The notes below the pieces were generated by a model. The model was not told the origin of the DNA and made no database searches. It saw only the letters and a program-made list of their open reading frames with translations. Position numbers and translations under genes: made by a program. 64,000 nt of DNA from a virus. Taxonomy: Duplodnaviria > Heunggongvirae > Uroviricota > Caudoviricetes. Shown piece after piece: positions 19,185 to 62,171 of this stretch. Position 1 is the first letter of the stretch. Every line of letters begins with the position of its first letter. Location of the stretch: positions 187,133-251,132 of IMG/VR virus record IMGVR_UViG_3300031417_000403. One strand, given 5' to 3'.

Positions 19185-19284
19185 GACGTTCTCCGACTGT
19201 AATTTTCTTTTTCATTGCGTTTCCTTTTGTGGTAGACTGCTGGGATATTTACGTCGATCAAGGCGTCATCTTCAACACGAAGCA

Positions 19285-19320
19285 GAAATATAGGCATTAG
19301 CTGACAAATAAGGAATTGCC
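19285..19320 (+). promoter_or_regulatory. conserved ~36-nt motif aaatataRgcattagctgacaaataaggaaNtgc (copy 1)
   Basis: near-identical to 51872..51907. Confidence 0.45.
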
Positions 19321-19467
19321 ATGAGATGGATCGCCGCACTCGTTGTTTTGATACTGATTGTAATCATTGCATCAACACCCATACGCACGCACAACCGTTC
19401 ATGCGAGCATCTGAAAAGATACCCAACATCGAATCTTTTAGTTCAGTGTTTATTCGGCTCAAGATGA
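19321..19467 (+). CDS. small membrane protein (48 aa)
   Basis: ATG directly after conserved motif aaatataggcattagctgacaaataaggaattgcc; TM AALVVLILIVIIAS. Confidence 0.35.
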   Translation: MRWIAALVVLILIVIIASTPIRTHNRSCEHLKRYPTSNLLVQCLFGSR

Positions 19468-38333: not shown

Positions 38334-39149
38334 ATGAAGAAGCTGTTTGTTACTCTGTTGTGGATGATTTCAGCGACGTGTTCTGCCGCGAAGTTCAACT
38401 CACAGTCAGTGTTCGTTATTGAAGACGGTGGTCAAGTGTTGTTCGAAAAACAACCTGACCTCGTCAGCCCAATCGCGTCACTGACAAAACTCATGACTGC
38501 AATGGTAGTGCTGGACGCACATCAGAACATGCAGGAAATAATTACGATTCAACAGTCTGATGTCGATGAAATCAAGCACAGCATGTCACGTGTTCGTGTT
38601 GGTTGGCAGATGACACGAGCAGAGGCGTTGGAACTCGCGCTGATGCACTCCGACAACAGAGCTGCAACTGCACTGGGCAGAACGTATCCAAGCGGACTAC
38701 CAGCATTCCAAGAAGCAATGCGAGCGAAAATCGCAGCATTGGGACTTCGCGGAACATCGATTGTAGAACCATCCGGACTCTCGCCAAGCAATGTATCCAC
38801 CGCACGTGATCTTGCCATCATCGCAATAGCGGCATCAGCATATCCAGACATCACCCGCATCACCACGACCGAATTGGTTCAAATCCACGGTACAAATTTC
38901 AAGAACACCAACAGATTAGTTGGCGCAAACGGCTGGGACATTCGTCTGTCAAAGACTGGTTACATCGAAGAATCAGGTCGATGCTTTGTCATGAGAATCG
39001 TCGCTGCTGGTAAAACTGCAACCATCGTCTTGCTCAATGCTGGATCGAGTTCAGCTCGCATGCAAGATGCGTGGACAATCCGTCGCGCAATCACTGGCGA
39101 ACCCTCACCGAAGCCGCAGAAGCACAAGAAGAAAAAGCGTCGCAAATAG
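38334..39149 (+). CDS. D-alanyl-D-alanine carboxypeptidase/endopeptidase (low-MW PBP, S11 family), secreted
   Basis: signal peptide; SxxK SLTK, SxN HSDN, KTG LSKTG motifs; TAG stop. Confidence 0.75.
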   Translation: MKKLFVTLLWMISATCSAAKFNSQSVFVIEDGGQVLFEKQPDLVSPIASLTKLMTAMVVLDAHQNMQEIITIQQSDVDEIKHSMSRVRVGWQMTRAEALELALMHSDNRAATALGRTYPSGLPAFQEAMRAKIAALGLRGTSIVEPSGLSPSNVSTARDLAIIAIAASAYPDITRITTTELVQIHGTNFKNTNRLVGANGWDIRLSKTGYIEESGRCFVMRIVAAGKTATIVLLNAGSSSARMQDAWTIRRAITGEPSPKPQKHKKKKRRK

Positions 39150-39172
39150 TATGCGTACACGGTGCATCAAGG

Positions 39173-39178
39173 TATAAT
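39173..39178 (+). promoter_or_regulatory. promoter -10 TATAAT
   Basis: ggtataatctttcaccacataggaaacatcATG. Confidence 0.5.
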
Positions 39179-39200
39179 CTTTCACCACATAGGAAACATC

Positions 39201-39851
39201 ATGTCGAAGAAACTCTACGTATCATCAGCAGTGCAAGTCGCACTGCTGCGAGATGTCCTCATTCCCGAAATGTCCACTGGCTTCTGGAAAGACCATCGTC
39301 CGGCGGATCATGCTGCGCAATGGGTCGGTCTCGAAATCCTCGTGTCGGAAGACTCAAAGCTGGGACCAGTCAACTGGGTTGCACCGCGTCTGTACAACTT
39401 CATCAATCCGGAATTTCTGCGGCCGGAGGCTGATGGCATTCCGGAAAAGAAACAACTGTCGCGTATGGAAAAGCGATTGGTCGACGTCGCACAATCTGTG
39501 AAGTCGTCGAGCAACCTGCGTTCGGTCAAGAAAGAACTGATCGAGCTGTCGCACATCATCAGCGGCCGTTTGACGGATGCGAATGTAAATCCGACGAAAG
39601 CCAACCGTGGCAACAACAAGCATGGTACAATTCAAGAAAGCGTATCGAAGGCAAAGGCCGCAGTCAAGAAAGCTGCGACCGCTGTCAAGAAGCCAGCAGT
39701 AAAGAAACCATCGGTCAACACCGTTACGGTAACGAGAATGCCGGACGGATCGATCGTGAAGCGCGTGGCTGTTGTTCGCGCCGATCCATTTGCAGCGCTC
39801 ACGGGCAATGCAACCATCACAACTGAAATCGAAACCATCGAAGGAGCATAA
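39201..39851 (+). CDS. hypothetical protein with basic AKK repeats (216 aa)
   Basis: ATG after ggtataatctttcaccacataggaaacatc. Confidence 0.5.
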   Translation: MSKKLYVSSAVQVALLRDVLIPEMSTGFWKDHRPADHAAQWVGLEILVSEDSKLGPVNWVAPRLYNFINPEFLRPEADGIPEKKQLSRMEKRLVDVAQSVKSSSNLRSVKKELIELSHIISGRLTDANVNPTKANRGNNKHGTIQESVSKAKAAVKKAATAVKKPAVKKPSVNTVTVTRMPDGSIVKRVAVVRADPFAALTGNATITTEIETIEGA

Positions 39852-49001: not shown

Positions 49002-49292
49002 ATGAAAAACGTCAACGTCCTCGAAGCAGAATGCAAAGAAATCAAGTTCCCGAGTCTCAAGTGGGACAAAGAACGCAAGACTTACGACGATGTCGAAGTC
49101 AGCTGCGATTGCTTCGTGAAGAACGGCGTGCTCATGGTGACGAGCGATGACGGTCTCGGTGCGATCGACTACTACGGCGAGTTCCGCGGTGGTTACTCGT
49201 ACATCGACCCGAAGCTGGAAGCATTCGCGAAGGCGAACGGTTGCTTCTGGGAATGGAACAACCCGTCGAGCATCTCGCTCCACGAAGCCTGA
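49002..49292 (+). CDS. hypothetical protein (96 aa)
   Basis: ORF track. Confidence 0.5.
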   Translation: MKNVNVLEAECKEIKFPSLKWDKERKTYDDVEVSCDCFVKNGVLMVTSDDGLGAIDYYGEFRGGYSYIDPKLEAFAKANGCFWEWNNPSSISLHEA

Positions 49293-49322
49293 AAAAGGCT
49301 GTGCAAGACAGTGTGAACCGGG

Positions 49323-49328
49323 TATAAT
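49323..49328 (+). promoter_or_regulatory. promoter -10 TATAAT immediately upstream of suppressor tRNA
   Basis: gggtataatgattccactgaacg, same subclass as the 17810 and 55991 copies. Confidence 0.55.
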
Positions 49329-49362
49329 GATTCCACTGAACGAAACAGGCAGTACAGATTAA

Positions 49363-49438
49363 GCCTCGTTAGCTCAACTGGCAGAGTGGCGGTCTCTAAA
49401 ACCGAGGGTTGCGGGTTCGATCCCCGCACGGGGCACCA
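49363..49438 (+). tRNA. amber suppressor tRNA, anticodon CUA (tRNA-Trp-like anticodon arm), CCA encoded
   Basis: cloverleaf: acceptor gcctcgt/acggggc, anticodon arm gcggt CTCTAAA accga, T-arm gcggg ttcgatc cccgc. Confidence 0.7.
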
Positions 49439-49455
49439 GAATTTAGGAGCAGTAC

Positions 49456-49680
49456 ATGAAGGGCTGGGGCGCACAAGACGATTTTCAAGCACAGATCGAG
49501 CAGACGGTAAAAGACCGTCGCGCAGTTCTCGAATCGATCTTGTCGGCGCCGGGCAAAGCAAAATGCGAAGATTGCGACCAGCCGATTCCTGAACTGCGAC
49601 GTGAAGCATACCCATCCTGCACTCGTTGTGTAGGATGTCAGTCGGAACACGAAGGCGGATACTTCATTCGTCGTCGTTAA
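49456..49680 (+). CDS. TraR/DksA-family C4 zinc-finger protein
   Basis: CEDCDQPIPELRREAYPSCTRCVGC. Confidence 0.5.
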   Translation: MKGWGAQDDFQAQIEQTVKDRRAVLESILSAPGKAKCEDCDQPIPELRREAYPSCTRCVGCQSEHEGGYFIRRR

Positions 49681-49709
49681 TTTTGTAGTCAACTTTAAAG
49701 GAACTGAAC

Positions 49710-49892
49710 ATGACCGTCAATACCCGTGAACTGAACGACCGCGCCCGCCACCTGCTGAGCACCGGCAACACGAAGGAATCGGCCGCTCGCAAGCTGAGCG
49801 CCGAGTTCGCTGCTTCGGCCTACGTCAGCAAGGGCAAGCTGTTCGCCACCTTCCTCGACGAAGGCAAGCCGACGACCCGCACGCTCGGCTAA
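49710..49892 (+). CDS. hypothetical protein (60 aa)
   Basis: ORF track; RBS aaaggaactgaac. Confidence 0.4.
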   Translation: MTVNTRELNDRARHLLSTGNTKESAARKLSAEFAASAYVSKGKLFATFLDEGKPTTRTLG

Positions 49893-49925
49893 CGCGGCCT
49901 GGACCTCGCAAGAGGTTCCACATAA

Positions 49926-50042
49926 CTGGATTAGCTCAGTGGGAGAGCGGCGTGCAGCGGCACGTGATACCGAAACCGATACAGCATTCTCGTGTGAATG
50001 TTCCCTACGGTTAGCGTCATTGGTTCGAATCCAATATCCAGT
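49926..50042 (+). tRNA. tRNA-like gene (117 nt) with ~40-nt insertion between D-arm and T-arm; anticodon undetermined
   Basis: acceptor actggat/atccagt, D-arm gctcagtgggagagc, T-arm attgg ttcgaat ccaat; internal hairpin cgtgc agcg gcacg. Confidence 0.35.
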
Positions 50043-50238
50043 TATGTGACGAATGCGTAAGCTAATACGCGAAACTTGTGGTTGTGATACAGACCGGAGA
50101 AGCGGTTCATAAGGGTGGACGCATACAACTCTTCCTTGGCGTCCGAAGCTGCCTCATGAAAGTGAGATGCGGGATTCCTGATAAAGTATCACATGCCGGG
50201 ATTAGCTCCGGCCGTCACTGAACTTAACGGAGGATGAC

Positions 50239-50412
50239 GTGGACCATGAAGTGCGAGTGCAACAGTTGATCAACAGCGGACTTACGCCTGCTCAAGCTCG
50301 GCGAGAAGCCAGAGCAGAGCGAGCAGAACTTCGCGCTGAAGCACGAGCATCGAAGGCGAACGTGAGACTCGGCATTTCGATTTTCAACCTGATCGCAAGA
50401 ATTTTCAAATGA
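50239..50412 (+). CDS. small hypothetical protein (GTG start)
   Basis: RBS ggagga before GTG. Confidence 0.3.
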   Translation: MDHEVRVQQLINSGLTPAQARREARAERAELRAEARASKANVRLGISIFNLIARIFK

Positions 50413-50571
50413 CGCGTGAACAAGAACTGGAGGCAATGGTCGAACGACTGGTTGCCGCAATGAAAGAAGCCCACAATGTGGGCTGTGTGGATCACCTCGA
50501 TTGCTGCGATGATGGCGGCGAGTTCTGGTATGGAGCAATCGAGGATGCTAAGGCTTTGCTGAAGCGTTAAT
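50410..50571 (+). CDS. small hypothetical protein (53 aa)
   Basis: ATGA overlap. Confidence 0.3.
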
Positions 50572-50830
50572 CGTCGTCTTCTACCCCGTCGTCATGCTTC
50601 TGGAAGTGTTTGTCGATTTCCTTCCAGAGTTTGTCTTCGGGTGTACCGGCTGGTGCGGAGAAGTATCCGACTGAAACGAATTTGCCGTTACGCTTTTTGT
50701 AACCTTTGAACTTGACACGTTTCTTGCCGTTGTCCGTATATTCTTCAACGTTCTTGACCTTGTAGAATGACGGATCGCCAAGACCCTTGATTTCCTCGTT
50801 CAGTTGAATTAGTTCTTTAAGTAGGCTCAC
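50567..50830 (-). CDS. hypothetical protein (87 aa, GTG start) on minus strand
   Basis: RBS aggat 7 nt before GTG on minus strand. Confidence 0.4.
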   Translation of the reverse strand: MSLLKELIQLNEEIKGLGDPSFYKVKNVEEYTDNGKKRVKFKGYKKRNGKFVSVGYFSAPAGTPEDKLWKEIDKHFQKHDDGVEDDD

Positions 50831-50879
50831 GTAATATCCTGTTTGTGTTAGAATCGAATCAGGTATTTATGGAACACGC

Positions 50880-51260
<381 letters not shown>

Positions 51261-51271
51261 TAGGATATATC

Positions 51272-51631
51272 ATGCATAAGCTCTAGATTTCCAAACCGCA
51301 AAAGACGTACCTCTACACCATCTCGCGCCGAGACCTCCCACTCGCGCAACAGGCTATTCAAGCCGGCCACGCTGCCGTTGAACACGCCTACACGTATGGC
51401 CGACCAGTGGATCACCACCCGTCGTACATTCACCTCACGATCAAAAACAAGTCGCAACTTGAATCGCTCCGCCAGAAGCTGAACGATGCAGGCATTCCTA
51501 CAGCCGAATTTCACGAGCCGTACCAGGAATGGGGACTGACCGCGATCGCATGCATCCTCACCGAAGACCAACGACATTTGACAAAGGGCTTGCAGCTCTG
51601 GCGTCTGCCTACCCAAGGAGAACAGCAATGA
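51272..51631 (+). CDS. PTH2-family peptidyl-tRNA hydrolase with in-frame TAG at codon 5 (requires amber suppression)
   Basis: ATG 51272, TAG 51284-51286, then TISRRDLPLAQQAIQAGHAAVEHAY (PTH2 N-terminal motif) with no in-frame start before GTG 51407; C-terminal LTIKNKSQLESLRQKLNDAGIP...GLTAIACIL matches PTH2 fold. Confidence 0.5.
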
Positions 51632-51870
51632 ACCTCAACCAAGCCGAGGCGATTGCCTCCCTGTATCAAGAACTGATCGAGTCGATCGACAAGTCGAGAA
51701 TCACTCCGCCAATCTTTGGCTGGGGAACTGGTACGTTTGAAGAGAAACATATCCAATCGATTTCCATGGAAGACGGGCAGATCAAAGTCCATTGGAGTCG
51801 TTACATGGGTTGCGGCGATTACGATACCGACGACACGTACCACGCTCTGCATACGCTGTTCGACTAACAA
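51628..51870 (+). CDS. hypothetical protein (80 aa)
   Basis: ATGA overlap. Confidence 0.45.
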
Positions 51871-51871
51871 G

Positions 51872-51907
51872 AAATATAAGCATTAGCTGACAAATAAGGA
51901 AATGCAA
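51872..51907 (+). promoter_or_regulatory. conserved ~36-nt motif (copy 2) preceding ATG-...-TAG leader of HD gene
   Basis: aaatataagcattagctgacaaataaggaaatgcaa. Confidence 0.45.
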
Positions 51908-51943
51908 ATGAACGCTCATCACCTCTAGGTTCTCCGCGAAAAG

Positions 51944-52468
51944 ATGTCGTCGTGTAGTCAGTCGAAGGGTCAAACGATCCTCCAGCATGGCGAAGCCGTT
52001 GCGGCCCGATACAAAGACCTCATTGGCGAACAGAAAATGGAATGGCGACTGCCGGACTGGTTCGATCTGGATTACCTGCTGCCACTCTGCCCACCGGCAG
52101 AAATCATGGAGCAGTACCACATCTACCACGATTGCGGCAAGCCGTATTGTGTAACCGTTGACGATGAAGGTCGCCAACACTTTCCAGACCACGCGCGCAT
52201 CAGCGCAGCGATCTGGCGAGTCAACGGCGGAAGTGAGCAGATCGCCGAACTCATCCAGCGAGATATGGACATGCACACGATCAAGCCAGCGGACGCTGCT
52301 GGATACGATCGCATGGACCTCGCACCAGCACTTCTGCTCACGGCACTCAGTGAACTTCATGCCAACGCTGAAATGTTCGGAGGTATTGAAAGCACGTCTT
52401 TCAAGATCAAATTCAAGGCACTCAACAAAGTCGGTCGTAACATCATCAACAAACTTAAAGGAAACTAA
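51944..52468 (+). CDS. HD-domain phosphohydrolase (possible N-terminal extension from ATG 51902 through in-frame TAG 51926)
   Basis: H...HD...H...H...D pattern (LQHGE, IYHDCGKP, PDHARI, DMHTIK); upstream leader MQMNAHHL-TAG in frame. Confidence 0.5.
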   Translation: MSSCSQSKGQTILQHGEAVAARYKDLIGEQKMEWRLPDWFDLDYLLPLCPPAEIMEQYHIYHDCGKPYCVTVDDEGRQHFPDHARISAAIWRVNGGSEQIAELIQRDMDMHTIKPADAAGYDRMDLAPALLLTALSELHANAEMFGGIESTSFKIKFKALNKVGRNIINKLKGN

Positions 52469-52470
52469 TC

Positions 52471-52770
52471 ATGACGAACTTCAACTCCAAAGAAACCTAC
52501 CTGGCTGCCCGCGCTGAATGGAAAGCTAACTACAATCGCCTGACGGAAGAATCGCGCAAGCTGCGTCAAGAATTCAAGGACGCTGCGAGCCTGTTCGGCA
52601 AGACGTCGTACCGCGATCACACCGCATACTGGGCTAACTATCGTGCGGCTGAAGCTCTGCGCGAACAGCGCGATGCACTCCGCCGCGAAGCCAACGTAGC
52701 ACTGGCTGATCTGTTCGCGATGAAGGAAGAAGCGGCAGCACAGTGGGAAGCTGCTCGCGCTCTGGCATAA
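52471..52770 (+). CDS. hypothetical helical protein (99 aa)
   Basis: ORF track. Confidence 0.5.
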   Translation: MTNFNSKETYLAARAEWKANYNRLTEESRKLRQEFKDAASLFGKTSYRDHTAYWANYRAAEALREQRDALRREANVALADLFAMKEEAAAQWEAARALA

Positions 52771-52809
52771 CGCGAAAAATGACATTTCGGCAACAGTAAA
52801 TAGAATATA

Positions 52810-52852
52810 ATTCTGGATGCTGTTGCCGTACTGTAACATTGTTATTTTGTCA
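52810..52852 (+). terminator. hairpin cggcaacag...ctgttgccg followed by T-rich tract
   Basis: 9-bp inverted repeat with 23-nt loop then gtactgtaacattgttattttg. Confidence 0.35.
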
Positions 52853-52871
52853 ACGTTGACGAGATTCATGG

Positions 52872-52877
52872 TACAAT
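52872..52877 (+). promoter_or_regulatory. promoter -10 variant TACAAT
   Basis: catggtacaatggttc. Confidence 0.4.
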
Positions 52878-52914
52878 GGTTCTTTGGCATCTAACCATCA
52901 CTAAAGGACCTATC

Positions 52915-53223
52915 ATGAAACGAGAAAAAGAAGTTGTCGAACGACTGTGGTACAAGGCAAAGCTGTCGCCGGTTGCGGCTGGACTATTCACTGACGCTTT
53001 CTACCCAACACCAAAACGTGGGACGGGAGCGCAGTATGTTTTCTTCACGCAGATCGACACAACTCCGAGCCAGCAAAAGGTTATCATCGCATCCAAGCTA
53101 AACGAAGCTGGACTGCGCATGATGACACGTGACCTGGCTCAGAAATGCCTCATCCCTGGCGACAAGGCAACTAAAGCGGAAATGGCTCAGTTGAACGAGC
53201 TGTCCAAAAATCTCAAGCTCTAA
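52915..53223 (+). CDS. hypothetical protein (102 aa)
   Basis: ATG after ggtacaatggttc...aaggacctatc. Confidence 0.5.
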   Translation: MKREKEVVERLWYKAKLSPVAAGLFTDAFYPTPKRGTGAQYVFFTQIDTTPSQQKVIIASKLNEAGLRMMTRDLAQKCLIPGDKATKAEMAQLNELSKNLKL

Positions 53224-53239
53224 ACTTTGAAAGAAAACA

Positions 53240-53416
53240 ATGGCCACATTGAAAATTAAAATTCAGCCTTTTGAAATACCTGAACACGTTTACATCGAAG
53301 TTCCTGGTGATGCTGCACCTGTTGCAGTCGCGCTTGGGGAACTCGACGAAGACACTCTCAGCACCATGATCGAAGAATTTGTTGCCGGCATCATGGCAAA
53401 GACGGGGCGCGAATGA
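53240..53416 (+). CDS. small hypothetical protein (58 aa)
   Basis: ORF, ATGA overlap with next. Confidence 0.35.
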   Translation: MATLKIKIQPFEIPEHVYIEVPGDAAPVAVALGELDEDTLSTMIEEFVAGIMAKTGRE

Positions 53417-53715
53417 CTTCCATCGTCCAGATTCTCATCGACAAGTGGGAAGGTAACCCATCCGGCCTTCGCGAGGATTACCGCAACAAGCTCAAGCATG
53501 GTAGCTGGATTGTCGAGTTCACGAAGAAAGACGGTACACCAGCCGTCATGGAGTGCACTCTTGACGAAAGGCTTCTGCCTGAATCGGAACGAGAACTCGA
53601 AGCTCGCACCGAACAAAATCACCTCCTCCACGTCTACTCGCTCGACCGTCAGGGTTGGCGCAGCTTCATCGTTGACAACGTCAAAGCATTTTACCGTAAG
53701 CCTGACGTATCATGA
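53413..53715 (+). CDS. hypothetical protein (100 aa)
   Basis: ORF track. Confidence 0.5.
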   Translation: MTSIVQILIDKWEGNPSGLREDYRNKLKHGSWIVEFTKKDGTPAVMECTLDERLLPESERELEARTEQNHLLHVYSLDRQGWRSFIVDNVKAFYRKPDVS

Positions 53716-54056
53716 CTGACGCATTCAATAACATTCTGACAAAGCGCAAGAAGTTGAAAGAAGAACTCATCGCCAAGTACGGCGAAAACTTCGATCAGCC
53801 AGCGCGCATCATCCGCGTACTCGACGCGGAAGAGCAAGTCATTCGCCAATGGCTTGAAGAACTGAAACCGGAAATCATGGCCATCCAAGGACCGGGTCCG
53901 CTCGGCGATGATGAACCGTACTACGGTGCGATTGGCGGCGGAGTGACATACAGCTTCACGCCAACAGGTCTCGGCTACATTCTCGTAGTCAAAGAAGCAA
54001 CCACTGGAAAAGAACTCAACGTCACGCAAGCGCTTGACTGGTACTTTTTCGACTAA
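53712..54056 (+). CDS. hypothetical protein (114 aa)
   Basis: ORF track. Confidence 0.5.
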   Translation: MTDAFNNILTKRKKLKEELIAKYGENFDQPARIIRVLDAEEQVIRQWLEELKPEIMAIQGPGPLGDDEPYYGAIGGGVTYSFTPTGLGYILVVKEATTGKELNVTQALDWYFFD

Positions 54057-54071
54057 TCAAGGAAACACATA

Positions 54072-54398
54072 ATGCAAATCAAAGGTATCAAACTCACAAC
54101 CGGCGACGAGCTGGTGGCAAAGGTCGTGTCGGAAAATCCTGATGGCACTCTGACTGTGCAAGACCCGCTCATGATGGTTATGCAGATCGTGCCGAAGTCC
54201 AAAGAAAATCCTGAAGGCGGAATGGTCTGTCAGTTCTATCCATGGACCATCATCAACGAAGGCGACATCGTTCTGCAAACTGCAGGCATCATGGCCCACT
54301 ACGCAGTGCCACGCGACGTTGAACAATCTTACAACCAAAACACGAGCGGTCTTCAGATCGTATCGGGCGCAGCGGCACAGCAAATCCTTCATGGCTAA
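54072..54398 (+). CDS. hypothetical protein (108 aa)
   Basis: RBS aaggaaacacataATG. Confidence 0.5.
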   Translation: MQIKGIKLTTGDELVAKVVSENPDGTLTVQDPLMMVMQIVPKSKENPEGGMVCQFYPWTIINEGDIVLQTAGIMAHYAVPRDVEQSYNQNTSGLQIVSGAAAQQILHG

Positions 54399-54630
54399 TA
54401 CCGAAATGACGTTGCCGGAAATCTTCGTCCAGCTGCCTGAAGAAATTCAGGCAGCGCTCGAATCCGCATTGGAGCGAAGCACGTTGCCGCTCGATCCAAC
54501 AAAGAGCGAAATATTCGTGGCAACGGAAGTGGTTGTGTTTGACCTGAAGTATCGTTTTCCGATGGCTTCTCAACGAGTGGTAGAATTGCTCGACATGGTT
54601 CCACAAGCGGTTGCAAATCTTCTGTCTTGA
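54392..54630 (+). CDS. hypothetical protein (79 aa)
   Basis: ORF track. Confidence 0.4.
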
Positions 54631-54668
54631 TAAATAGAACCATTGTCGTTCAATAATCCAGGATTCAA

Positions 54669-55325
54669 ATGAAACTCACAGACCTCGTTGTACAAGAAGC
54701 AGCTCCACTCGGAGATGACCCAGTTGAACTCAAAGACGTTGTCGAGTTCTTCCCGTCACAATACAAGAAAGCAATCAAGGCCTTCGCAAAGAAAGGTCGC
54801 CTTCGTTTCGGTGGCGACGAACTGTTCACATCGGATGGTGAACACGGTCCTGCACTGGATGACGCAATCCGTGTTGCCCAGCGTTTCCTGAAACACGAAC
54901 CGATCAATGTCGAAGTTGAGTTCAACACGGCTGGAACTGATCTTCCGGAACCAAGCGACCGATCATTCGAAATCGAATGCGATGTAGAAGAGTCAACCCC
55001 AGTATGGGTTGGCTATGACACGAAGCAGGATATGCTTCTGCTCGGGTTTGACGTCTGGATCGGTGACAACGAGTTCAACGACGAATGGGACAACAAGTTC
55101 GAAGATGCATTCGGTGAAGGCTTTGACCAGGACAATGAAGACCACGACAAGGTGTTCGACAAAGCCTGGAAGACGTTCAGCAACGGGCAAATGTTCTACG
55201 GAGCAATTGTCCAGGTGAATGCTGGCGGCCACGCTGAAATGGAAATGCCGATCATGGATGGCGGATTCTACCGTGGCCCATTCAAGCACCTCAGCAAAAC
55301 CAACGTGATCGAACTGAACGGTTAA
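54669..55325 (+). CDS. acidic hypothetical protein (218 aa)
   Basis: ORF track. Confidence 0.55.
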   Translation: MKLTDLVVQEAAPLGDDPVELKDVVEFFPSQYKKAIKAFAKKGRLRFGGDELFTSDGEHGPALDDAIRVAQRFLKHEPINVEVEFNTAGTDLPEPSDRSFEIECDVEESTPVWVGYDTKQDMLLLGFDVWIGDNEFNDEWDNKFEDAFGEGFDQDNEDHDKVFDKAWKTFSNGQMFYGAIVQVNAGGHAEMEMPIMDGGFYRGPFKHLSKTNVIELNG

Positions 55326-55327
55326 TC

Positions 55328-55561
55328 ATGACTCCAGAAGAGCGTATCGCAGAACTTGAAAAAGAAGTGAAGTGCCTGACCCGGCTAGTAAAGGAGATGG
55401 CAGCTCGCGAGAAAGTAACTACGGCCAGGTTAGCATCGGTCGCACGTGAGCACGCTTCTACTGCCAAGGACGTGAAAGCCCTTGACACTGCTGCAAGAAA
55501 ATCTGATGCGAAGATTGCACAGGTTCATGCATCAGTCCAACGTGTAGCAAATTCGCGTTGA
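55328..55561 (+). CDS. hypothetical coiled-coil protein (77 aa)
   Basis: ORF track. Confidence 0.45.
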   Translation: MTPEERIAELEKEVKCLTRLVKEMAAREKVTTARLASVAREHASTAKDVKALDTAARKSDAKIAQVHASVQRVANSR

Positions 55562-55760
55562 AGAAAATATGGAAGTTTTGAAAATTCCCATATATAACTC
55601 TACTATGACAAACAAACTGAAGGAACTATCTTCCGTGAAAACTCTCTCCACCCTCGCCTTGCTGACATCACTCCCTTCGGGTAGTGGGTATGTCTGCGCG
55701 CCTGCGGTGTACGGTAGTATGAGGTCCCTGATGTAAGTTCAGTCGATAGACTAGAATCCA

Positions 55761-55796
55761 AAAGGGACCCAACGCGAGTTTGGTCCCTTTTTCTTT
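55761..55796 (+). terminator. Rho-independent terminator
   Basis: aaagggacc caacgcgagttt ggtcccttt followed by ttctttat. Confidence 0.6.
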
Positions 55797-55835
55797 ATGG
55801 TTCAAAAAAAGTTGTACAAGTTTAGATTGACCTGG

Positions 55836-55841
55836 TAGAAT
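55836..55841 (+). promoter_or_regulatory. promoter TAGAAT-GCTTTCCTCG subclass (tandem 1 of 3 upstream of tRNA array)
   Basis: ggtagaatgctttcctcg. Confidence 0.5.
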
Positions 55842-55913
55842 GCTTTCCTCGACTGACTGATCGCGACAGCGAAAAGCCGGTTGCAAAAAGATGTACAAGT
55901 TCGGAAAACATGT

Positions 55914-55919
55914 TATAAT
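55914..55919 (+). promoter_or_regulatory. promoter TATAAT-GCTTTCCTCG subclass (tandem 2 of 3)
   Basis: tgttataatgctttcctcg. Confidence 0.55.
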
Positions 55920-55990
55920 GCTTTCCTCGTTTGACGAAACAAACTGAGTGATGAACGAAAAATAAATCACACAGACTTCGAAAAACACGG

Positions 55991-55996
55991 TATAAT
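55991..55996 (+). promoter_or_regulatory. promoter ggtataatgatt subclass (tandem 3 of 3)
   Basis: cggtataatgattaaaacc. Confidence 0.5.
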
Positions 55997-56359
55997 GATT
56001 AAAACCAAACTGCACAAAACGCTGCAGTACGAAACTGGTCTTTAACAATTTAGATGCCAACAGCTCACGCTGAAAGCAACAAGAGTTCCTGGATGTGCTG
56101 ACGCACCGATGGATGAAACCTCAATGCTGTGAACGTCGCAGTAAGCCCGTCAGGGCGAGACGAACAGTTATAGGGGCCGTACACAGTATGGTTGATTAGT
56201 AGTTTTGTCGTTCGCGACCGAATGTCAATCGTTACCTACATAATGGCCATAAAGCTACTTGTCGCCACTTCAGCGTGAGCAAAACTGAACTGTTAGCAAA
56301 ACGTTACCCGTACGACGCTTTAGTCTATGCGGATACTTAGTACCCTAACAGTTCGATTT

Positions 56360-61501: not shown

Positions 61502-61638
61502 GTAGAGGTAGCTCAGTCTGGCAGAGCGACCGCCTCGTCGAAAGACACCTGTTTGCGCAACTTGTTGACAAACGTCAACCGAATGTGAATAGTTATCCAA
61601 GCAGTATGTCGTAGGTTCGAATCCTACCCTCTACACCA
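61502..61638 (+). tRNA. long tRNA-like gene C (137 nt) with variant insertion (AATAGTTATCCAAGCAGTATG)
   Basis: acceptor gtagagg/cctctac, D-arm gctc agtctggc agagc, T-arm gtagg ttcgaat cctac, CCA; internal hairpin gttgac aaac gtcaac. Confidence 0.45.
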
Positions 61639-62096: not shown

Positions 62097-62171
62097 CCCG
62101 AGGTAGCTCAGCGGTAGAGCAGGCTCCGTTATGGGAGCTGTGCGCTGGTTCGAATCCAGCCCTTAGGCCCA
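62097..62171 (+). tRNA. atypical tRNA (C3-A70 mismatch; 6- or 8-nt anticodon loop gttatg; TAT/Ile candidate)
   Basis: acceptor cccgagg/ccttagg, stem gctcc/ggagc enclosing gttatg, T-arm gctgg ttcgaat ccagc. Confidence 0.4.

Follow-up and report, generated by a model that had tools for sequence, protein, structure and literature searches.

Within a 64,000-nucleotide stretch of a tailed-phage genome (Caudoviricetes; positions 187,133 to 251,132 of IMG/VR record IMGVR_UViG_3300031417_000403), here called the window, two nearby genes carry an in-frame amber codon (TAG) shortly after their start. One is predicted to encode an HD-fold protein, the other a protein resembling peptidyl-tRNA hydrolase 2 (PTH2), and both lie about 2 kb downstream of a gene for a suppressor transfer RNA (tRNA) with the anticodon CUA. 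In each, a Shine-Dalgarno (SD) sequence and an ATG are followed by a few sense codons, the stop and then, in the same frame, the remainder of the gene; we refer to this arrangement as a gate. The window is phage-like, with 51.7% GC, nearly all genes on the plus strand and 26 tRNA genes. Its HD-like protein is 100% identical to a database protein (P0001) carried on a 375,534-bp contig, and the relatives are IMG/VR contigs of 110-455 kb, so the source is a jumbo phage of about 375 kb. Comparison of positions 50000-56000 with known phages by DNA similarity gave no close relative, the sole match being a segment of 37-39 nucleotides (nt) that resembles ribosomal RNA (rRNA). The features needed for the argument are the following.

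49363..49438, plus strand: amber suppressor tRNA, anticodon CUA (ARAGORN; Rfam tRNA 60.3 bits)
51262..51286, plus strand: gate of the PTH2-like gene, with SD AGGA (51262-51265), a 6-nt spacer, ATG 51272, CAT AAG CTC and the in-frame TAG 51284-51286
51272..51631, plus strand: PTH2-fold gene (peptidyl-tRNA hydrolase 2-like), which on this reading would require read-through of TAG 51284
51896..51928, plus strand: gate of the HD-like gene, with SD AAGGAA (51896-51901), ATG 51908, AAC GCT CAT CAC CTC and the in-frame TAG 51926-51928
51908..52468, plus strand: gene for the predicted HD-fold protein, read as MNAHHL-(TAG)-VLREK-MSSC...

At the HD-like gene the DNA reads, in order, the TAA of the upstream open reading frame (ORF; 51865-51867), a repeated motif that is taken up below, AAGGAA, and then ATG (51902) CAA ATG (51908). 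The second ATG stands 7 nt from the SD and the first only 1 nt; this spacing favours ATG 51908 as the start, which makes the leader MNAHHL and the amber codon 7. Past TAG 51926 the sequence continues GTT CTC CGC GAA AAG ATG (51944) and stays in the same frame to the TAA at 52466-52468. An earlier note on this DNA had claimed a TAG leader in frame with the HD-like ORF, and direct reading of 51908-51928 and of the ORF to its end at 52468 bore this out. The five codons from the stop to the annotated start at 51944 encode a conserved L-x-x-L-R-x-K-M helix that is kept in gated and ungated homologues alike. Ungated homologues hold it as MQLAKSLYELKEAM (locus L024) and MIYPNTFEELLQVM (Serratia phage BF and GAP32), and in close relatives its L-R-x-K codons vary synonymously (CTC/CTT/CTG, CGC/CGT/CGA, AAG/AAA). 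Because ungated homologues read through this segment and close relatives differ in it by synonymous changes, we regard the extension upstream of the annotated start as coding.

The protein itself is assigned to the HD class on the H..HD motif, a profile match and the predicted fold. The residues of the H...HD...D metal-binding motif (H62 D63, H79, H83, D107 and D109) are invariant in 30 homologues, the predicted structure has the HD fold, and the structure it most resembles is the HD-like domain of class II tRNA nucleotidyltransferases. The HD label of the earlier note thus stood for fold and motif and failed at the level of Pfam, where neither the ORF nor its neighbours matched a family at E<=0.01 and a precomputed PF01966 (HD) assignment was present on only 1 of 120 listed homologues.

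No such nearby internal Met exists in the PTH2-like gene. After TAG 51284 the nearest ATG, GTG or TTG lies at 51407, 40 codons on, and a protein started there would drop strand 1 and helix 1 of the PTH2 fold, both of which are encoded within 51287-51406. This segment scores as coding (+0.26 per codon, the other frames being negative) in a codon model trained on the window, where the model separates the strands by 4625 against 83; summed ORF length, considered as an indicator of the gene strand, is uninformative at about 50% GC and the codon model was used in its place. The protein shows the PTH2 alpha/beta fold. Its score against PF01981, 18.7 bits (E=0.002), is below the gathering threshold of 23, and the GK of the canonical D-L-x-M-x-x-G-K motif is missing from the family; peptidyl-tRNA hydrolase activity is putative. 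PTH2 of jumbo phages has been proposed to free ribosomes that damaged tRNAs have jammed (Iyer et al. 2021, PMC7824862). Both gated genes point to tRNA and ribosome maintenance.

We wondered how far this layout extends beyond the window and fetched the loci of homologues (25 and then 80 for the HD-like gene, 45 for the PTH2-like gene), scoring suppressor tRNAs within the 8-16 kb obtained. Down to about 40% identity, most relatives of both genes show an SD, an ATG, one to seven sense codons, an in-frame stop and then the uninterrupted conserved protein. The non-redundant set from jumbo phages comprises 125 gates: 70 in HD-like genes (TAG in 67, TGA in 3), 49 in PTH2-like genes (TAG in 48, TGA in 1) and 6 in canonical PTH2 genes (all TAG), to which a divergent PTH2-like cluster of 7 is additional. 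Leaders are usually 2-4 codons long, for example MT*, MK*, MTM*, MM*, MC* and MW* (the asterisk marking the stop) in HD-like genes and ML*, MQS*, MKL*, MK*, MKA*, MQ* and MSL* in PTH2-like genes; the leaders of the window, with 4 and 6 codons, are among the longer ones. The leader ATG has an SD 5' of it in 43 of 62 HD-like and 38 of 49 PTH2-like gates, the internal Met in 1 of 59 and 0 of 10, respectively. No canonical start occurs within 15 codons past the stop in 31 of the 49 PTH2-like gates. The codon that follows the stop is often AAC, ACA or ACC and hence unable to serve as a start codon. In some genes the stop has moved and has nevertheless been kept, at codon 47 in the HD-like genes of Serratia phage BF and GAP32 and at codon 17 in locus L005.

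The earlier note had named a chance frequency of TAG leaders as grounds for refuting its reading. Within the window, short ATG..stop leaders in frame with long ORFs end in TAG 7, TGA 10 and TAA 7 times and so show no enrichment of TAG. Across 70 loci, scanned without bias but with an SD as a requirement, the counts were TAG 64, TGA 18 and TAA 7, nearly all TAG matches falling into these two families. It is the SD signal and the comparative data alone that make the gates of the window significant. The same note had pointed to a shared CTC-TAG context. Both window genes do have it as sequence; as a conserved context it dissolves, the codon 5' of the stop varying over the 125 gates (ACG, ACT, TTG, TCG, CTA and others). 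The base 3' of the stop is far more uniform, being A in 93, G in 26, C in 6 and T in none (a purine in 119/125), against 45, 30, 33 and 32 for A, G, C and T after background early TAGs (54% purine). In the E. coli genetics of Bossi and of Miller and Albertini, both from 1983, nonsense suppression was reportedly favoured by a 3' purine.

The suppressor anticodon and the stop vary together. In 46 non-redundant TAG-gated loci at least one tRNA-CUA gene, and often a second, sits within a few kb of the gates. Both genes of contig 3300036781_000418 (L037/L162) have TGA gates, beside two tRNA-UCA genes and no CUA in the locus; the HD-like gene of contig 3300028874_000010 (L008/L168) also has a TGA gate, and widening the flank there brought up a tRNA-UCA. 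The Agrobacterium phage Atu_ph07 allowed a prediction beforehand: because its paper reports an opal suppressor (PMC6102473), a TGA gate was expected, and its PTH2 gene reads AAAGG..ATG ATT GGC GAA CAC TTT TGA ATT AAT.., in frame. Among loci with both features, the combinations are TAG-CUA in about 50, TAG-UCA in 1 (L160), TGA-UCA in 3 and TGA-CUA in 0 (hypergeometric probability, worked out by hand, about 2e-4). Per-locus stop usage, taken from crude gene calls, gave no clear signal of TGA avoidance in the TGA-gated phages. A gene for the phage's transfer-messenger RNA (tmRNA) is adjacent in 14 of 78 loci.

The window's suppressor has the features of an elongator tRNA, with G1-C72 paired and, in the anticodon stem, G-C pairs only at 29-41 and 30-40, position 31-39 being T-A; the label 'Pyl' given to it by ARAGORN reflects the anticodon alone. 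Attempts to assign its isotype by similarity to phage tRNAs were inconsistent (Arg, Met, Val, Thr, Asp and others) and were given up. Homologues that appear to lack the stop were likewise rejected as a guide to the inserted residue: the Q at the gate in database proteins (among them P0013 and P0125-P0158; loci L076 and L077) is TAG translated under genetic code 15 by gene calling on short contigs, and the DNA has TAG. Public protein collections thus already hold silently 'read-through' versions of gated genes. Many residues are probably tolerated at the gate, given that it lies in a variable N-terminal segment.

Gates are also present in cultured phages, whose GenBank records omit or shorten the gated genes. 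In RsoM2USA (L071) the PTH2-like gene (ATG TTG TAG) is unannotated and the HD-like gene (ATG AAA TCG TAG) is annotated from an internal ATG. The PTH2-like gene of Serratia phage BF (L073; ATG ACG CAC TAG) is unannotated and that of GAP32 (L075; ATG GCA CAA TAG) is truncated in GenBank, and in both phages the HD-like gene is split in two at its TAG. The two genes are fused as ORF364 in XacN1 (L072), with AGAGGA..ATG AAG TAG ACC upstream and in frame. The GenBank coding sequence of the TGA-gated PTH2 of Atu_ph07 (L220) is truncated to an internal Met, the Sinorhizobium phage Phosso, a relative of Atu_ph07, has a TAG gate on its PTH2(-like) gene, and the PTH2(-like) gene of RaK2 has a normal start. 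We found no description of early-stop gates in these genes in the open-access literature, and a description elsewhere is possible.

Given the gate anatomy and the covariation of stop and anticodon, we propose a competition between release factor 1 and the suppressor tRNA. Ribosomes would initiate at the SD-preceded ATG and meet the in-frame UAG after 4-6 sense codons in the window genes. Where release factor 1 wins, only a tiny peptide would be made; where the phage suppressor tRNA decodes UAG, the full protein would follow. The early stop would thus act as a gate, or rheostat, that ties synthesis of two enzymes of tRNA and ribosome maintenance to the presence and activity of the suppressor tRNA. 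The in-frame stop is embedded in sequence whose two sides are conserved as protein or needed by the fold, a cognate suppressor tRNA is encoded in the same genome, and stop and anticodon covary among relatives with the one exception of L160. We infer that read-through by the phage suppressor tRNA does occur, and consider it the probable, though by no means certain, explanation of the gates. Read-through regulation with a suppressor tRNA had been suggested in the earlier note; comparison among relatives backs it strongly, and it emerges as the best-supported explanation on SD position, coding continuity, conservation and stop/anticodon covariation.

Several observations weigh against this explanation. 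Twenty-nine TAG-gated loci and the TGA-gated locus L154 have no suppressor tRNA within the 8-16 kb fetched; one may lie elsewhere on the contig. In L160 (contig 3300026088_000010) the HD-like gate is TAG, yet the sole suppressor among 27 tRNAs in the 16.5-kb locus is UCA. Suppressor tRNAs of the relatives are heterogeneous in sequence and discriminator base, some being Gln-like with U1-A72/G73. The excess of purines 3' of the stop is confounded by Ile, Val or Asn being preferred as the residue there, and avoidance of TAG as a terminator is not decisive, as TAG is, over all frames, the least frequent stop trinucleotide of this strand. The ATG five codons past the HD-like TAG could allow basal expression independent of the suppressor.

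Could the leader instead be a separate upstream minigene, with the HD-like protein made from ATG 51944 and TAG terminating a short peptide whose translation modulates ribosome loading or drop-off? Very short ORFs such as the lambda bar minigenes promote peptidyl-tRNA drop-off and thereby yield the substrate of Pth, the window has its ATG five codons past the TAG, and a Met follows within 25 codons in 59 of 62 HD-like gates. However, such a Met carries an SD in only the single case among 59 noted above, leaders are in frame without exception, ungated homologues share the intervening codons, which are conserved as protein, and the PTH2-like gene lacks any internal start. A minigene would also leave unexplained why the stop switches to TGA exactly where the neighbouring tRNA is UCA. 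Because of the SD position, the PTH2-like gene without an internal start, the conserved coding extension and the stops that moved and were retained, we favour read-through and regard the minigene as unlikely. A start at TAG itself, with the tRNA-CUA as an amber-reading initiator, would account for the closeness of TAG to the SD, and engineered amber initiator tRNAs function in E. coli. The window tRNA, however, has a paired G1-C72 and lacks the three consecutive G-C pairs of an initiator anticodon stem, SD spacing suits the leader ATG, which is always present, and the stop lies 17-47 codons inside the gene in BF, GAP32 and L005; we give this idea almost no credence. The gate TAGs might also be ordinary sense codons of a genome that uses code 15 throughout. 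A suppressor tRNA is present, some related short contigs have been called under code 15, and TAG terminators are rare, the well-scoring plus-strand ORFs (n=86) ending in TAA 53, TGA 30 and TAG 3 times. Yet in 64 kb a sense reading of TAG adds convincing coding sequence to no genes other than the PTH2-like and HD-like ones, coding density is normal under code 11, and TAG 39147 and TAG 15151 act as true terminators. Moreover, the stops occur only at codons 2-8 of two families and are not scattered, and TGA terminators persist in the TGA-gated L037. Genome-wide reassignment is therefore very improbable.

A further question was whether the motif in front of the HD-like gene, which the earlier note had tied to a regulated subset of genes, acts as promoter or operator of read-through genes that are regulated together. 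Its two copies in the window are the following.

51870..51907, plus strand: repeat copy 1, with the core GCATTAGCTGACAAATA at 51880-51896, beginning 4 nt past the TAA of the upstream ORF
19284..19321, plus strand: repeat copy 2, ahead of SD AAGGAA and of ATG 19321, which opens a hydrophobic ORF of 48 codons; no TAG leader

The sequence AAATATA[A/G]GCATTAGCTGACAAATAAGGAA at 51872-51901 and 19286-19315 differs at 1 position in 30 and agrees at 33/36 over 36 nt, so the near-exact copy reported near 19285 is real; the 30-nt form occurs exactly twice in the window and was matched 0 times in 100 dinucleotide shuffles. Both copies stand directly 5' of an SD and ATG, the 3' end of copy 1 supplying the SD AAGGAA (51896-51901) of the HD-like gene, and the motif also precedes the HD-like gene in close relatives. 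Against a promoter or operator stand the lack of any plus-strand sigma-70 site in 49200-52600 (-35/-10 hexamers at 16-18 nt spacing), the PTH2-like gate without the motif and the 19286 copy without a TAG leader. The claimed gene set falls with the last two of these, which separate the motif from the gates, and with the motif's dispersal in relatives. The small membrane-protein gene said to follow the 19286 copy fared no better, the 48-codon ORF at 19321 being of doubtful coding status with a negative codon-model score in both candidate frames.

In relatives the core GCATTAG[C/G]TGACAAATA, with the extended consensus aATAcAG-core-Gcg, has 56 distinct copies in IMG/VR contigs, at least 10 of them in one 257-kb contig and at least 7 in another. 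The motif typically starts 4-12 nt past a stop codon, often with a GC-rich hairpin and a T-run next. Relative to it the flanking genes, oriented by the codon model, are forward/forward in 8 cases, reverse/reverse in 7, convergent in 7 and divergent in 0. It lies 5' of the HD-like gene in direct orientation in the window, L001, L003, L004 and L005 and inverted in L010 and L029. This abundance, post-stop placement and mixed orientation likewise speak against a promoter or operator, which we consider quite improbable. As more specific candidates, a sigma-70 promoter or terminator found no support, and a T7/SP6-like promoter on the sense strand was rejected as its orientation is inconsistent with the downstream gene. 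The motif core TAGGTGACA would equal the SP6-type promoter core, which counts in favour of a promoter. We conclude that the motif is an intergenic repeat, dispersed in this phage clade and separate from the gates, that merely abuts the HD-like gene here; its properties suit either a small mobile cassette or a repeat that works at the level of DNA, in intergenic or 3'-end positions. By eye, a weak hairpin of 5 bp (GCATT/AATGC) was noticed around the SD.

Two other amber codons of the window were considered as read-through sites and rejected. TAG 39147 closes a gene for a D-Ala-D-Ala carboxypeptidase (38334-39149), and TATAAT, an SD and ATG 39202 come next; the extension past TAG 15151 does not score as coding in the codon model. 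Over 39147-39851 no further stop separates the frame of the carboxypeptidase gene from that of the next gene, which starts at 39202, and amber suppression would give a 505-residue fusion; this shared frame is probably incidental.

Upstream of the PTH2-like gene lies an element that resembles T4 late promoters.

51203..51213, plus strand: T4-late-promoter-like element TATAAATAAAA, named by resemblance only

By analogy, TATAAATAAAA is a candidate promoter for the run of PTH2-like gene, small ORF and HD-like gene. Elements of the T4 late type (TAAATAG / TATAAATA) occur 25-35 nt 5' of many starts in relatives, for example in L028, L037, L082, L103 and L113, and GGTATAAT elements stand 5' of the suppressor tRNA (about 49322-49331) and of the gene at 39202. 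Tandem PTH2-like paralogues in one open frame were seen in L044/L045/L047 (3326-4300), the first TAG-gated (ATG AAG GCC TAG) and the second with a normal ATG. In an AT-rich clade (L161 6660, L171 6661, L198 5800) a third family of about 315 residues also begins with ATG, 1-3 codons and TAG; with its repeated Zn-ribbon-like CxxC modules it looks like a homing endonuclease.

A gap of 700 nt without ORFs, just 5' of the PTH2-like gene, contains a segment at 50908-50946 that is identical to bacterial 23S rRNA over 37-39 nt. We take this segment to be from the L11/thiostrepton-binding, GTPase-associated-centre region of 23S rRNA. Similar matches (about 93%) occur in the Xanthomonas jumbo phages XacN1 and XaC1. 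The segment matched no Rfam family and had no copies among the 219 fetched loci, and its folding is unexceptional (z=-1.4). Between it and the tRNA region lies the only plausible minus-strand ORF of approximately 49280-52700, at 50567-50830. Directly 3' of the suppressor tRNA is a gene for a DksA/TraR-type C4 zinc finger (49456-49680; Pfam E=1.6e-10). A tRNA-like gene at 49925-50043 (Rfam tRNA 40.2 bits), not called by ARAGORN, has a 45-nt insertion in the anticodon region and may be an intron-containing tRNA. A second long tRNA match was found at 61502-61635 (50.2 bits), and at 62097-62171 ARAGORN reports a tRNA with the two-base anticodon '(ta)' (Rfam 42.2 bits).

How might a phage benefit from read-through of this kind? 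An early stop minimises wasted synthesis, as a closed gate releases only a short peptide. Beyond this we can only speculate that gates time expression, that they match the capacity for rescue (PTH2, and tmRNA in the neighbourhood) to the extent of suppression imposed by the phage, or that they check that the phage's tRNA set is expressed and charged and limit expression to such cells. Many standard-code jumbo phages, cultured and metagenomic, carry one or two suppressor tRNAs whose targets are an explicit open question, and the gates offer concrete, testable candidate targets in phages that can be grown and engineered. A wider proposal, which we find possible and hold only tentatively, is that the lone suppressor tRNAs of these phages are dedicated regulatory RNAs whose chief task would be to open gates on a small tRNA-repair and ribosome-rescue regulon, comprising PTH2, the HD-fold protein and perhaps a few others, and that they may be a foothold for genome-wide recoding. 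If read-through is indeed how these genes are expressed, a natural tRNA-operated switch would sit at the start of genes that tend tRNAs and stalled ribosomes. GenBank annotations of gated genes, now missing or truncated, would then need correction, Q residues in metagenomic databases would have to be regarded as possible artefacts of code-15 calling, and the gates would represent a plausible intermediate towards full reassignment of a stop codon in phages.

The closest known systems are the suppressor tRNAs of the cultured phages XacN1, RsoM2USA, Atu_ph07, phiKp24 and phage G, which are phages of the same kind with the same tRNAs and with homologues of both genes. For XacN1, in-silico read-through past 18 amber terminators gave nothing and the targets of its two suppressors could not be identified (PMC5852040), and the roles discussed for the others are speculation only (RsoM2USA, PMC8504454; Atu_ph07, PMC6102473; phiKp24, PMC8386662; phage G, PMC12484599). 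None of these papers names a target, whereas the gates described here, in XacN1 ORF364, RsoM2USA, GAP32, Serratia phage BF and Atu_ph07, lie upstream of annotated starts or in unannotated ORFs. The suppressors of phiKp24 and phage G are ochre tRNAs with the anticodon UUA. The PTH2 proteins of Iyer et al. 2021 (PMC7824862) belong to the same family and the same phage groups and were proposed to release peptidyl-tRNA from jammed ribosomes; that work, unlike ours, mentions neither in-frame stops nor a link to suppressor tRNAs.

In recoded phages of code 15 or code 4, such as Lak megaphages and crAss-like phages, a phage suppressor tRNA reads an in-frame stop and a regulatory role has been proposed, and a standard-code phage with an acquired suppressor tRNA has been considered as a possible step before the code change (Borges et al., preprint 10.1101/2021.08.26.457843; PMC9523058). 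In contrast to those phages, the genome here is otherwise standard-code, only 2-3 small families are involved, which serve translation maintenance rather than structure or lysis, and a single gate stop at codons 2-8 takes the place of stops spread through the ORF. The prfB gene for release factor 2 (RF2; PMC12421855) likewise has an early in-frame UGA in the ORF of a translation factor, where a release factor and an alternative decoding event compete at the A site. It requires a +1 frameshift and senses RF2, whereas the gates would be decoded in the zero frame by a dedicated phage tRNA; autoregulation by frameshifting of the prfB type was rejected here, the downstream ORF being in the zero frame and not in +1. 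Finally, synthetic amber-suppressor circuits (a feed-forward 'leak dampener', PMC7969014; PMC13276491) combine an early amber codon with a separate suppressor tRNA into a translational AND gate. Those circuits are engineered, and the gates described here would be their natural, evolutionarily conserved counterpart.

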